From: a phage
Reading direction: 5' to 3' (one strand)
Sequence record: PZ379545.1
DNA length: 52,467 nt
Below, piece after piece: positions 2,759 to 21,851 of this stretch (the first letter of the stretch is position 1; the number at the start of each line of letters is the position of its first letter). The position numbers and the translations under genes were made by a program. Under the pieces are notes generated by a model. That model searched no databases. It saw only the letters and a list, made by a program, of their open reading frames with translations, and was not told where the DNA came from.

Positions 2759-2806
2759 GTTCTAATTAATCTTAGAGCTGGCTTCAATATTGTAGCCATC
2801 TGTAAC

Positions 2807-2823
2807 ATTAGTTGGATGTGAAG
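2807..2823 (+). promoter_or_regulatory. Candidate phage-type promoter motif (ATTAGTTGGATGTGAAG)
   Basis: Best match to the recurring intergenic motif. Confidence 0.45.
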
Positions 2824-5538: not shown

Positions 5539-5802
5539 ATGGCTACTAAAACTGGCATGATGCTCGTACCACGCCGTAATAACTCTTTGGCTGGTTTCGA
5601 GCCGTATAAGATTTACCGTGTTATATCTGGAACTGGTGAAGCAAACCTTTCAGAAGTCGCCTTGAAGATGGGCCGTATGGTCCATTCCGAAATGTCTTGT
5701 AACGTAGTTGATGATGAAGGTAAAATCCGATTTGTAACATTGGATTTCTTTCGCGAATTTAAACTTGAATCAGAATTAGGTGTTTTATACCATGAAATTT
5801 AA
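5539..5802 (+). CDS. Hypothetical early protein
   Basis: ATG at 5539 after TTGGAG RBS; 87 aa. Confidence 0.55.
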   Translation: MATKTGMMLVPRRNNSLAGFEPYKIYRVISGTGEANLSEVALKMGRMVHSEMSCNVVDDEGKIRFVTLDFFREFKLESELGVLYHEI

Positions 5803-6019
5803 ATGTGTTGCTTCAACCAAAGACTACGTTCCAGTTGGCTTAATCATTGAAGGTGAAGCTATTTCGCCTTTGGAATTTAAAGTGACTAAATCTGCTGAAA
5901 GCATTTCTCCAGCATTCCGTAAAGGTGCTGTCGTTCCTATGAATGGTGCATTCTGGACATGGCAGCGTGACCATCGTGCAGAATTTGCAGATATTTGTGA
6001 GCAAGGTGCATTACAATGA
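5792..6019 (+). CDS. Early paralog family member 1 (MKFKCV...WTW)
   Basis: Shares N-terminal KFKC(V/I), YVP.G.IIEGE and C-terminal P(M/L)NG..WTW motifs with the next two genes. Confidence 0.6.
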   Translation: MKFKCVASTKDYVPVGLIIEGEAISPLEFKVTKSAESISPAFRKGAVVPMNGAFWTWQRDHRAEFADICEQGALQ

Positions 6020-6246
6020 CAAAGTTTATATGTATAAAATCCTCTTCTTCATCCGAATATGCTCCTAAAGTTGGAGATGTGATTGAAGGAGAACTTGTAC
6101 AAATACAGCGAAAACATGGAATCGACACTCGAATAATTGTTTCGAATGTTGGGGACAGAGTGGCTGCCAATGGCAGACCCTACTGGAGCATTGGTGAAAG
6201 TGTCCCATTAAACGGAAGTATTTGGACTTGGAAAGAGGTTAAATAA
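6016..6246 (+). CDS. Early paralog family member 2 (MTKFICI...WTWKEVK)
   Basis: Same motif set as 5792-6019; ATGA overlap. Confidence 0.6.
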   Translation: MTKFICIKSSSSSEYAPKVGDVIEGELVQIQRKHGIDTRIIVSNVGDRVAANGRPYWSIGESVPLNGSIWTWKEVK

Positions 6247-6312: not shown

Positions 6313-6798
6313 ATGGCCAAATTCAAATGTGTAAAGGGTTCTGAATACGTTCCAGAAGGAACAATTCTTGAGGGTGTCCAGAGAAAGGGCAGACTCATAC
6401 TTACCAAGCCGTCCGAGCTTCTTGGAATTGACGGAAATCCGAGATTCAGTGAAGGCGATGACCTGCCAATGGAAGGTGTTTTATGGACTTGGGAAGAGAT
6501 TAAAGAGAAAGTGAAACAACGTACTCGTTTACATCGTGACCCAGCCACAGGTCGCATGTTGCCAGCATATTTGAAAGTTGGTGATTTGGTTTACACTCGT
6601 GACTTTGCTTTTGATATTTGTCCTAGCAAAGTTTATGTTGTTCTTGCCACCAGCTTGTCTAAGCCTAAAGTGCTGTTTGGTGCACTTGAGCCAATTCAAT
6701 TAACCGGAACTCAATTTGTCATTAAAGATGAATCTGGTTGCAATCGCACCTTCAGTCTTGAAGGCGGATTATCTAAGTGGGAGAAAGTGAAGAAATGA
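6313..6798 (+). CDS. Early paralog family member 3 with about 85 aa C-terminal extension
   Basis: N-terminal 75 aa match the family motifs (MAKFKCV...LWTWEEIKEK); 161 aa in total. Confidence 0.65.
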   Translation: MAKFKCVKGSEYVPEGTILEGVQRKGRLILTKPSELLGIDGNPRFSEGDDLPMEGVLWTWEEIKEKVKQRTRLHRDPATGRMLPAYLKVGDLVYTRDFAFDICPSKVYVVLATSLSKPKVLFGALEPIQLTGTQFVIKDESGCNRTFSLEGGLSKWEKVKK

Positions 6799-7082: not shown

Positions 7083-7242
7083 GGATTGAATATTAAATAC
7101 CTAATACTGACACTTACTATTAGCGTTGTTATACTTACGATTGTTATAGGCTTTGCCAACCTGCTGCTATTACAAGCAGGAATATAAACTGGCGCGTTAA
7201 ATTAACAAGGAGCATTCATTGAGTGTTCCTGATTAATCTAAC

Positions 7243-7260
7243 ATTAGTTGGATGTGAGAG
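7243..7260 (+). promoter_or_regulatory. Candidate phage-type promoter motif (ATTAGTTGGATGTGAGAG)
   Basis: Motif match in the intergenic region upstream of the SSB-tip gene. Confidence 0.45.
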
Positions 7261-7332: not shown

Positions 7333-7710
7333 ATGGCACAATATAACGATTTAAACACTGGCATCATTGGTGCAAACGGCTACAAGAAGCAAGACACTCA
7401 TCCTGATGTTCGTGGCCGCATTAACGTAGAGGGTATCTGGTATTGGGTATCTGGTTGGACCAAAAAGGCTGGTGACAATGAATTTACTTCATTGGCACTG
7501 ACCATCATGACTCAGGAACAAGTTGATGAAATGATGCGTAAGCGTGAAGAGAAAGCTAAAGCCAAAGCTCAACCTCAAGCTGCCGCTCAACAGCAACAGC
7601 CACGCCAGCAACCTTCTGCACAACAGCAAGCACCTGTTCAGCAACAGACGCAGAATAGTAACTACAACCCGAACGAGCCGAAAGACTTCGACGACGACAT
7701 TCCGTTCTAA
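7333..7710 (+). CDS. Small protein with Gln/Ala-rich linker and SSB-type C-terminal tip DFDDDIPF
   Basis: 125 aa: about 75-aa N-terminal domain, low-complexity QQQ/AAQ linker, last eight residues identical to the E. coli SSB C-terminal tip as I recall it. Confidence 0.7.
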   Translation: MAQYNDLNTGIIGANGYKKQDTHPDVRGRINVEGIWYWVSGWTKKAGDNEFTSLALTIMTQEQVDEMMRKREEKAKAKAQPQAAAQQQQPRQQPSAQQQAPVQQQTQNSNYNPNEPKDFDDDIPF

Positions 7711-7717
7711 TAGAGAT

Positions 7718-7747
7718 GCCCTATGAAAATCTTATGTTTTATAGGGC
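7718..7747 (+). terminator. Hairpin downstream of the SSB-tip gene, possible terminator
   Basis: GCCCTAT...ATAGGGC stem with inner AAAA/TTTT pairing; weak U tract. Confidence 0.35.
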
Positions 7748-7831
7748 TACATAATTGGGAAATTTCACACGAAAACGATTATGTAACCATTTGGGTGTGT
7801 AAGCACTGTTCAGCAATGCGTGAGGAATATC

Positions 7832-8557
7832 ATGGGAGCTAGAATCTTCGAAATTCCAGTAAATCTGGTTAAAAATGGTGATACGCTTTGGTATGCAGAT
7901 AAAGAGTACCCAATCGTAAATGTAGTCCGCCTACGAGACTGCACAACACTTAACTACTTATTGGGAAAAGACCGAAGCGGGTACTTTAACTTCGAAAACA
8001 GTCGAATTGTTAAACTTATTGACAAGCAAAACGAATTCAATGTTCCTTACACTGCGGTGTCACCAACAATTGAGTTTCCTAACCAAATAAATCCAGTATT
8101 CCTTCCTGTAGAAGAGTTTAATAAACAGGAAGTATCCGATGAAGAAGATGTTCTCGGAAAAGATGTGGAAGTTGGTGATGTTATTTGGGTAAATAACAAT
8201 TGGGCAACTGTAACAAACGTGTACAAACATCCACATTCGCCAGCCAATAAAGTAAATGTAGACTATGGAAACATTAAAGGTTTACAAGTACGGCTGGCAT
8301 TAACTGGAACATTCTCAAGAAAGGTAAGAGCAGCAATGGAAACATTAAATATTCAAAATGCAATTGAAGCACAACGTATTCTTCTGCAAAAGCTGGAGCA
8401 AATGCTCGACTTAACGCAGCTCCCACCAACAGAAGATGGCAGGATTGCAATTGGCAACTGCAACATTCGCGTGGACAAGGCAACAGTTGTTAAAGCCGCA
8501 CGCGATGAGATGAAAGCTGCCGCAAGCAAATCCGCAGAGCTTATCAAGAAACTGTAA
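7832..8557 (+). CDS. Hypothetical protein
   Basis: 241-aa ORF, ATG at 7832 with GAGG RBS. Confidence 0.6.
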   Translation: MGARIFEIPVNLVKNGDTLWYADKEYPIVNVVRLRDCTTLNYLLGKDRSGYFNFENSRIVKLIDKQNEFNVPYTAVSPTIEFPNQINPVFLPVEEFNKQEVSDEEDVLGKDVEVGDVIWVNNNWATVTNVYKHPHSPANKVNVDYGNIKGLQVRLALTGTFSRKVRAAMETLNIQNAIEAQRILLQKLEQMLDLTQLPPTEDGRIAIGNCNIRVDKATVVKAARDEMKAAASKSAELIKKL

Positions 8558-9904: not shown

Positions 9905-10171
9905 ATGAATTATCAAGACATACCAGCAGAGATTCAGCATCACTATGCCCGTATAGATAAGGCAAAGAAAGAATTGCATCAAATGTCTGCGCTGAATCTA
10001 AGCGATGAAGTTCGATTAAATGCTTATATGGAGGTTGGAGAAACTTCCATGAAAATTAGCTTCAATGAGAAAGAAGCTATTATGCGGACGCTTATTAAAA
10101 ATAGCGAGGAAAGATTAGTAAAACTTCGTAAAATACATAGTGCATTAACTGACACAATGGAGAGCATATGA
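9905..10171 (+). CDS. Hypothetical protein
   Basis: ATG at 9905 with GGAG 6 nt upstream; an alternative ATG lies at 9893. Confidence 0.5.
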
Positions 10172-10710
10172 GCACCATTATCCAAGCAATAGAAAATCTT
10201 AAGTCCTGGCGTAGAGATGAAACCTTATTGGTTCGTTTCTACACAGGCGAAACTAATTCTGAATTTGTAGATGCGTGGATTGATGGCCTGTCTTGGCGTC
10301 ACTATGATTTCGACATGCGGGATTATTTGCATGAAGAATACGGCATCGAATACCCAAAAGATGGGACTTATGACATACTTGAATCAAGTGAAGCAGATGT
10401 AACAGAAGTTTGCTTTGCCAATGGCCTGTTCAGCATTCGCAAGTATGATAAGTTCAATGAGCTGCTTGTTGACACCGATTTGGATGTAATTCTTGCAGCA
10501 TTCCGCAGTGGTGATATTGATATTTTCACTGTGAATGATTTGAACGACATGTTCATTACTCGTTGCGATTCAATTGCAGACTACTTCAAGCAAAGTGAAG
10601 CACTGGATATTCCAGACCGCCTTGCACCATATATTGATTGGGAAGCAATTGTGAAAGACTTCGGCAGCGACTATATCTTCTCTGAAGGAGTATTATTCCT
10701 AAATGTCTGA
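10168..10710 (+). CDS. Hypothetical acidic protein
   Basis: 180-aa ORF with ATGA coupling. Confidence 0.6.
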
Positions 10711-13112: not shown

Positions 13113-13143
13113 GTTGTTTGTTAAATCAGAGCAGTTCTGAAGC

Positions 13144-13164
13144 ATTAGTTGAATGTGAAAAGAG
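13144..13164 (+). promoter_or_regulatory. Candidate phage-type promoter motif (ATTAGTTGAATGTGAAAAGAG)
   Basis: Motif match about 70 nt upstream of the strongly codon-biased gene at 13236. Confidence 0.45.
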
Positions 13165-20984: not shown

Positions 20985-21851
20985 ATGGCATTTGCTGCTC
21001 CTACCCTGGCCTCGAACAAGACTCCTTCTGCTGCACCATTACTGGAAGCGGGTGGTTATCCTGCTCGTGTTTGCCGTATTATCGACCTGGGCTTACAGCC
21101 TGGTTCTGCTAAATATCCTACTCCATCTCTGAAACTTCTGGTGACTTTCGAACTGCTCGACGAGTACATGAAGGAAGTTGATGGTGAAGGCAAAATGGTC
21201 ATGGTTCAAGACCCTGACGAAGATGACGGCATCATGATGGCGAAGAATCTTGAAGACAAGCCACGTTGGTTTGACTTTGAGTTTACCTATAATGCTGACG
21301 GCTTCATGGGTGACAATTCGCACATCTACAAATTCGCTAAGGCGATTGATGCACTGGAAGTTAAACCTAACCTGGAACAAGCTATTCAAGGCCATCCGGC
21401 TAAGAACCTTCCAGATTGGTTGGGCGAACCCCTGGTTGTTGGCATTGTTCAATACACCAAGCAGTCCGGCAAGAATGCTGGCCAGGTTGCGAACAAAGTT
21501 GCTACCTTCTCTCCGATGAAGTCTAAAGAGAAGAAAGAAGCTAAAGCTCTGGTTAACCCGACCGTCTTCTTTGACATGTCTGAACCAGACCTGGAAGTAT
21601 TCAACAAGCTGCCTGGTGGCGAATCTCCGTATGCAATCAAGAACCGTATTACTTCCGGTGTTGATTTCTACAAGACCAAGCTGTCTGCACTGTTAGGCGG
21701 TAAGCCTGCTGATGCTGGTGCAGTACCGAATCAGGCTTCTGATGAAGAAGTCGATGCAGCTATGAAAGCTGAACTGGAAGCACAGGCTGCTGCGAAAGCA
21801 CAGCGTGAAGCTGAGGGTGGTGCTGCTGGCGGTACAGGTATGCCGTTCTAA
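20985..21851 (+). CDS. Hypothetical abundant protein, possibly ssDNA-binding or recombination-associated
   Basis: 288 aa with strongly biased codon usage, Ala/Gly-rich acidic C-terminal region ending MPF; followed by a strong terminator. Function is a guess from position. Confidence 0.6.
   Translation: MAFAAPTLASNKTPSAAPLLEAGGYPARVCRIIDLGLQPGSAKYPTPSLKLLVTFELLDEYMKEVDGEGKMVMVQDPDEDDGIMMAKNLEDKPRWFDFEFTYNADGFMGDNSHIYKFAKAIDALEVKPNLEQAIQGHPAKNLPDWLGEPLVVGIVQYTKQSGKNAGQVANKVATFSPMKSKEKKEAKALVNPTVFFDMSEPDLEVFNKLPGGESPYAIKNRITSGVDFYKTKLSALLGGKPADAGAVPNQASDEEVDAAMKAELEAQAAAKAQREAEGGAAGGTGMPF

Follow-up and report, generated by a model that had tools for sequence, protein, structure and literature searches.

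A gene on the plus strand of phage sequence record PZ379545.1 (positions 7333 to 7710, ATG start, TAA stop at 7708-7710) raises the question of what is done by a 125-residue protein that joins the C-terminal tip of E. coli SSB to a folded domain of about half the size expected for an OB fold. The whole stretch of DNA analysed, 52,467 nucleotides and called the window below, is approximately the complete genome of a Carltongylesvirus (Chaseviridae) that has phiEcoM-GJ1 and ST32 among its relatives. A preliminary description of the locus had proposed either a minimal phage SSB or a decoy for host proteins that dock on SSB, and had suggested a profile search and a structure prediction of the N-terminal domain as well as a comparison of homologs, all of which are included here.

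The protein, whose C-terminus reads ...NEPKDFDDDIPF in the translation of the ORF, is a homolog of phiEcoM-GJ1 gp15 and ST32 ORF19 and 71 homologs of it were found; in more than 40 related phage genomes the gene is already annotated 'single-stranded DNA-binding protein'. This label goes back to similarity alone, the GJ1 note citing two other protein accessions (also PMC6266442). PHROG 7364, 'single strand DNA binding protein', matches residues 1-89 (E=5.8e-41), its label being an annotation and not a tested function, and PHROG 18154 matches the protein as well (E=9.3e-17). We take the two accessions cited in the GJ1 note to be proteins of Vibrio phages VP2 and VP5. The identity of the protein as an SSB is not new, and the finding is less dramatic than the preliminary description suggested because databases already label the gene in this way. 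What appears to be undescribed in the searched literature is a DNA-binding module of this kind, that is, a minimal PC4-like, DUF736-related domain, and the fact that the architecture defines a very large family.

The 125 residues fall into four parts, all encoded on the plus strand. Residues 1-60 (7333..7512) are predicted to make up a four-strand antiparallel beta-meander, which is the conserved core of the family and presumably its ssDNA-binding and dimerisation module. They are followed by an amphipathic helix predicted by AlphaFold2 at residues 61-79 (7513..7569; QEQVDEMMRKREEKAKAKA), by a Gln/Pro/Ala-rich linker at residues 80-116 (7570..7680) and by an SSB-type acidic docking tip, KDFDDDIPF, at residues 117-125 (7681..7707). 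The linker counts 15 Gln, 6 Pro and 5 Ala in 37 residues, with pLDDT values of 32-46, and residues 82-116 are predicted to be disordered (AlphaFold2 pLDDT <50). The succession of a short N-terminal domain, a Gln/Ala-rich linker and a tip, as first described from the translation, is therefore confirmed. The length of the linker differs between homologs, and the NCBIfam SSB models align it with the linker region of SSB, with scores far under the model cut-offs. As in bacterial-type SSBs, a disordered linker leads to an acidic tip ending in Ile-Pro-Phe.

The last eight residues (118-125), DFDDDIPF, are identical to the C-terminus of E. coli SSB, ...PSNEPPMDFDDDIPF, in the alignments with PDB entries 1eqq and 7f2n, as the preliminary description had it. 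With 29 of the 71 homologs aligned, no substitution is seen at I123, P124 or F125 and D120 is kept in at least 90%, meaning that the tip is not a chance match. This tip is an established interaction hub in SSB (PMC3632105, PMC5872125). Among the ORFs of at least 40 residues in the six frames of the window, no second one has such an acidic-then-aromatic ending. At the DNA level, the 3' part of the gene matches E. coli ssb over 39 nt with 81% identity (E=6); this match is not significant and thus gives no evidence of a recent DNA transfer. About 600 E. coli plasmid records also have short stretches that match the 3' end of the gene (query 7540..7713) with 95-99% identity; presumably these belong to plasmid ssb genes for the same tip.

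The N-terminal domain is the best-conserved part of the protein. N8, G10, N15, K18, H23, P24, D25, G28, G34, W42 and L54 are invariant, and conservation is 90% or more at Y37, W38, K44 and S53. In the full-length AlphaFold2 model, built as a monomer with 29 homologs, strands are predicted at residues 10-14, 26-32, 35-46 and 49-59, with pLDDT values of 82-95 (about 90) over residues 1-60, and the helix extends from 61 to 79. Modelling of the N-terminal domain alone gave four strands and a helix (residues 61-76) in the same succession, with a mean pLDDT of 85. The helix is conserved as MTQxEVDxMMxKR among the Chaseviridae homologs and is a feature of that branch, being absent in many short members of the family and in its tandem members; what all members share is the four-strand meander alone. 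The beta domain has 7 aromatic residues and no basic character (pI 6.5, 6 Lys/Arg versus 6 Asp/Glu). No Pfam domain was found in the protein, in its N-terminal domain or in distant relatives: hmmscan gave no match to PF02229 (PC4), PF00436 (the SSB OB domain) was not matched by the protein, and PF05037 (DUF669, the N4/HK620-type SSB) was matched neither by the protein nor by its relatives. When Pfam and PDB were searched with the protein or the family profile, nothing was matched beyond the SSB tail and low-complexity sequences such as PAT1 and LptE, save for a marginal match to the B subunit of Shiga toxin (E about 0.1), which is a small OB fold; this match was taken as chance.

The predicted structure, a four-strand antiparallel sheet followed by a helix, has the layout of the PC4-like fold, under which the structures 8chw (human PURA), 3n1h (StWhy2) and 3nm7 (Borrelia Pur-alpha) are listed for this domain. 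A profile of 241 N-terminal domains of the family was compared by hhalign with a profile of the PC4 C-terminal domain built from PF02229 members, whose query sequence is identical to 1pcf. The score obtained was 26.0 (probability 51-60%), to be compared with a mean of 9.5 (sd 2.1, maximum 14.8) for 150 column shuffles. With a single PC4 sequence the score was 24.6, when 150 real control proteins gave a mean of 9.9 (sd 2.7, maximum 19.9). In the register of the alignment, G28 falls on G79, Y37-W38 on Y88-W89 and S53-L54 on S104-L105 of PC4. W89 is the DNA base-stacking residue of PC4 (PMC4350104), and the conserved aromatic residue at this position is W38 in the phage protein. These scores suggest a remote homology of the domain to PC4, short of a confident call, and on the strength of the structure prediction and the remote profile match the domain is probably PC4-like and not an OB fold.

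At E<=1e-3, a profile restricted to the N-terminal domain retrieved at least 4,814 cluster representatives (50% identity), 1,098 of them at E<=1e-10, and this family is without a Pfam model of its own. Among the best 150 of these representatives the median length is 100 residues, and 104 (about 70%) have a hydrophobic-Pro-aromatic ending, which is D[ILV]PF in 53 and DDDIPF in 28; about 30% of the top representatives keep the domain without a terminal tip. One representative (P0177) ends in APSNEPPMDFDDDIPF, 16 residues of which are identical to the C-terminus of E. coli SSB. That up to 16 residues are shared suggests that tails were captured from ssb genes and did not arise by convergence alone. 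In one subfamily (L015, L025, L036 and L038 in bacterial genomes; P0076 and P0166) the D-D-[IVL]-P-F motif is not terminal, and five more residues, of a recurring type, follow it (APEFR, APEVR, LMEWR, LCEWR or SAEFR). Docking of an SSB tip normally requires a free C-terminal Phe, and the variant with an internal motif may therefore dock differently.

Tandem pairs of the domain were found in about 20 of the best 150 representatives. Such members (P0074, P0079, P0092, P0105, P0139, P0188 and P0193, and phages of the Vibrio VP2/VP5/phiVC8 group, where the domain is found at two places per record) carry both copies in one chain with no helices between them, and the SSB-like tip is usually kept. 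PC4-like domains, of which a type I and a type II are distinguished, are found either in homodimers or repeated within one chain (PMC7549692), and the tandem members fit a functional unit of two domains of this sort. The family is present in phage records from Chaseviridae, the Vibrio VP2/VP5/phiVC8 group, VpV262 and phages of Klebsiella, Providencia, Acinetobacter and Burkholderia, where its members are annotated as SSB or as hypothetical. DUF736 (PF05284) matches 8 of 104 family members at E<=0.01 (best 3.5e-7) and gives no match with the 125-residue protein of the window; at the level of these profile matches the link is a remote one and not membership. The structural neighbours found in BFVD are mostly unnamed members of the same family, with other Chaseviridae genera and one DUF736 protein. 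Our literature searches found no experimental study on the family or on DUF736.

We then looked at the genes that accompany the family, using 150 ORFs located within three genes of its members at 30 bacterial genome loci. The Pfam families most often represented were ERF (12 ORFs), YqaJ exonuclease (5) and HNH_3 (5); others included DnaB (2) and, with one ORF each, Sak, Rad52, DNA_pol_A and RecA_dep_nuc. Annealases of the Erf, Sak or Rad52 types thus account for 14 of the neighbouring ORFs. Metagenomic relatives lie near a faint Rad52-like match and NinB, and adjoin Sipho_Gp157. In other phages and prophages the family therefore occupies the classic position of a phage SSB beside an annealase, an enzyme whose activity depends on the C-terminal tail of SSB (PMC5928155, PMC12054835, PMC13490951). 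In the phage studied here, no annealase or other recognisable recombination gene adjoins 7333..7710.

The gene belongs to a group of small genes that follow the RNA polymerase gene. A promoter of the phiEcoM-GJ1 type for the phage RNA polymerase is predicted at 7240..7259 on the plus strand, where the sequence is an exact match to AACATTAGTTGGATGTGAGA, 73 nt upstream of the start codon at 7333. This motif has three matches in the window at up to 3 mismatches (2804..2823, 7240..7259 and 13141..13160, all on the plus strand), versus 0.01 expected by chance, and the three copies would mark units transcribed by the phage RNA polymerase. The site at 7240-7259 corresponds to an annotated promoter upstream of the homolog in SA91KD and to 'putative phage promoter 3' in phiEcoM-GJ1. 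In both of these phages the annotated promoter follows a terminator, just upstream of the homolog. The segment 7208..7240 (plus strand) is nearly identical to positions 6723-6755 of vB_EcoM_SA91KD, annotated as a rho-independent terminator, and may close the upstream block of small genes; support for this putative terminator is weak because our own simple terminator scan missed it. No enrichment was obtained in a scan for sigma-70 promoters and terminators. Given the exact promoter copy, the phage RNA polymerase probably transcribes 7333..7710, and the gene probably heads a transcription unit read by this enzyme. Location and promoter lend partial support to the designation of the protein as early in the preliminary description.

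The window encodes another protein with an SSB-like tail. It is 288 residues long (20985..21851, plus strand) and is encoded with the DNA polymerase gene on one side and the 5'-3' exonuclease gene on the other; its tail is Ala/Glu-rich and ends in ...GGTGMPF. Among the 120 homologs listed, the ending is IPF in 36, MPF in 18 and VPF in 9; DDDIPF is seen in a single distant one, and in others an acidic run precedes a final Pro-Tyr or Pro-Trp. The protein is hypothetical in almost all records listed (PHROG 862, 6599, 2544). No link was found to DUF669/HK620 SSB, T7 gp2.5, the SSB OB domain, PC4 or the family of the 125-residue protein, apart from a weak DUF669 match in 1 of 33 homologs (E=0.0046). 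This protein may act as another SSB-like hub, perhaps a replicative one. The presence of such a protein in the replication module means that the 125-residue protein need not be replicative or the sole SSB of the phage.

Our preferred reading, which we hold to be fairly probable, is that the 125-residue protein is a dimeric, non-OB, PC4-like ssDNA-binding protein that coats phage ssDNA and whose copied tip recruits host SSB partners and/or phage replication proteins. The phage has its own T7-like primase-helicase, family A polymerase, exonuclease and ligase (also PMC6266442) and therefore needs a factor that coats ssDNA. The beta-meander of about 60 residues, with its one helix, would bind ssDNA through the conserved and presumably exposed residues Y37, W38, W42, K18, R27 and K44, and the Gln/Pro/Ala-rich disordered linker would join this domain to the tip. 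The protein would thus cover the ssDNA exposed during replication, recombination or repair of the phage while presenting the DFDDDIPF tip, which would draw in the usual host partners of SSB and perhaps the phage polymerase, primase-helicase or exonuclease too, in parallel with the recruitment of partners by the tails of other phage SSBs. Several results speak against this reading: the missing PF02229 match, a helix that is not family-wide, a beta domain that is not basic, the existence of the 288-residue protein and the lack of a recognised annealase nearby. More tentatively, and with somewhat less than an even chance of being right, the data can be brought together by assuming a very large class of minimal SSBs, in which a PC4-like, DUF736-related domain of about 60 residues, as a dimer or in tandem, has captured the linker and tip of SSB and usually partners an Erf-type annealase. 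In the present phage this protein would share the coating of ssDNA and the recruitment of host partners with the unrelated 288-residue protein, one serving replication and the other recombination or repair.

The other function considered in the preliminary description was that of a decoy or titrator. The protein would then not coat DNA at all; early and numerous copies of the host SSB tip would compete for ExoI, RecQ, PriA, Pol III chi and RecO, so that host replication and repair would stop or host defences relying on these proteins would be weakened, and the N-terminal domain would serve only for oligomerisation or stability. Such a role would suit a small protein with its own promoter in an early block of small genes, a tip exactly equal to that of the host, a beta domain without net positive charge, and a genome whose replication module holds a larger protein that could be the real replicative SSB. 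However, most of the invariant residues are in the N-terminal domain and not in the tip, and they include aromatic and basic residues of the exposed type aligned with the DNA-contact positions of PC4. Moreover, the same architecture recurs in thousands of clusters, typically with annealase and exonuclease genes as neighbours, the setting expected of a true SSB, and the domain without a terminal tip is kept by the above-mentioned 30% or so of the top representatives; nor would a decoy have an obvious need for a long disordered linker mirroring that of SSB. We thus regard a decoy as unlikely, and of the two functions first proposed it is the minimal SSB that is favoured by the conserved N-terminal domain, its likeness to PC4 and the annealase neighbours. 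A role as a transcription or regulatory cofactor, like those of PC4, N4 SSB or LUZ7 Drc, in which the protein would bind melted DNA and help the single-subunit phage RNA polymerase or the host enzyme and not replication, seems quite improbable to us. The likeness of the fold to that of a transcription coactivator, the position of the gene, which is early and a short way downstream of the phage RNA polymerase gene, and the precedent of Drc, a phage ssDNA-binding RNA polymerase cofactor (PMC7145618), point in this direction, but the neighbours of the family are recombination and replication genes and not polymerase genes, the tip is the motif by which SSB docks replication and repair proteins, and most phages and prophages that carry the family are devoid of a polymerase of their own.

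There is very little to be said for the last possibility, namely that the N-terminal domain is a truncated OB fold and the gene a shrunken bacterial or plasmid ssb. The NCBIfam SSB models do align with residues 40-125 (E=3.8e-7), HMMER pairing WTKKAGDNEFT with KWTDQSGQDKYT of SSB, and the identity of up to 16 C-terminal residues with E. coli SSB (P0177) would be expected from such an origin. Yet the alignment scores 30 bits against a curated cut-off of 260 bits and the score comes mainly from the linker and the tip. The N-terminal OB-fold match to PF00436/TIGR00621 that goes with a bacterial-type SSB is absent, and the family profile scored 8.6 (probability 0.1%) against a bacterial SSB OB profile made from manually entered SSB sequences, lower than the average of 10.1 for shuffles. 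On this score we rejected a degenerate SSB OB fold. The impression gained at the outset from length, that the domain looks too short for a standard OB fold, is consistent with these results, and the conventional OB fold that the preliminary description had set against its own proposals left no signal in Pfam, hhalign or AlphaFold2. It is plausible, on the other hand, that the tail alone came from an ssb gene, by capture of its 3' end.

Compared with known systems, the 125-residue protein resembles E. coli SSB (PF00436; PDB 1EQQ, 4MZ9) in having, one after the other, a folded N-terminal domain, a disordered linker rich in Gln and Pro, and an acidic tip, and beyond the eight identical final residues the preceding NEP is common to both if one gap is allowed. 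It differs in its N-terminal domain, of about 60-77 residues and without OB signal versus about 115 residues in SSB, and in that a dimer would be expected whereas SSB is a tetramer. The known proteins to be considered on the side of the fold are the PC4-like protein of phage T5 (4BG7), proposed to be the replicative SSB of T5, human PC4 (1PCF) and the bacterial proteins BPSL1147 (5A4N), YdbC (DUF2128) and SP_0782. The T5 protein covers the fold half of the picture, and we found no report of an SSB-type tail for it. The tail half, with recruitment of an annealase, is covered by the SSB of HK620 (HkaK; DUF669, N4-SSB-like), a non-canonical phage SSB with the SSB-like tail NDYPPF. These last six residues are required to stimulate the neighbouring annealase Sak4 (PMC5928155), just as relatives of the 125-residue protein are found beside Erf, Sak or Rad52. 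The HK620 protein has a different fold, in a much larger domain (196 residues in all, with an apparent mass of about 95 kDa by SEC versus 21.3 kDa for the monomer). DUF736, to which the family has the remote matches described above, belongs to the backbone of conjugative elements and is uncharacterised. Every conjugative element in a comparison from Mesorhizobium carries a DUF736 gene, and what these elements transfer is ssDNA (PMC8627217). The T7 SSB, gp2.5, has an acidic C-terminal tail ending in Phe that contacts the phage polymerase and helicase; it is a 232-residue OB-fold protein, and its tail, as described, is different and not a copy of the host SSB tip.

If the preferred reading of a PC4-like ssDNA-binding protein is true, a domain unrelated to the OB fold and half as large would suffice for the work of an SSB that has the whole host SSB network within its reach, and the linker and tip of SSB would be a portable module that phages fit to different DNA-binding domains. 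As the family comprises at least 4,814 clusters, with neither a Pfam model nor a published experiment that we could find, a single study, biochemical and structural, would annotate thousands of genes, and it might also inform on DUF736 in conjugative elements. Recombineering based on annealases depends on the match between annealase and SSB tail (PMC12054835, PMC13490951), and a portable SSB of 90-125 residues that is a natural companion of Erf-family annealases could serve as a co-factor there.

Some other genes of the window drew our attention. Three consecutive small early genes at 5792..6019, 6016..6246 and 6313..6540 (plus strand) are paralogs, with 36-38% identity and the common motifs KFKCV...SEYVP.G.I.EG and P..G..WTW; the third has a C-terminal extension, for 161 residues in total, and was the only one of the three scanned against Pfam, with no match. 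The 180-residue protein encoded at 10168..10710 (plus strand) is called 'antirestriction protein' in relatives and has a marginal ArdA match (E=0.0077), below the cut-off. Finally, directly downstream of the SSB-like gene, a 39-residue ORF (7723..7842, plus strand), homologous to GJ1 gp16 and without a Pfam match, shows a Cys/His pattern (C5, H10, H16, C26, H28, C29) that suggests a small zinc-binding peptide.
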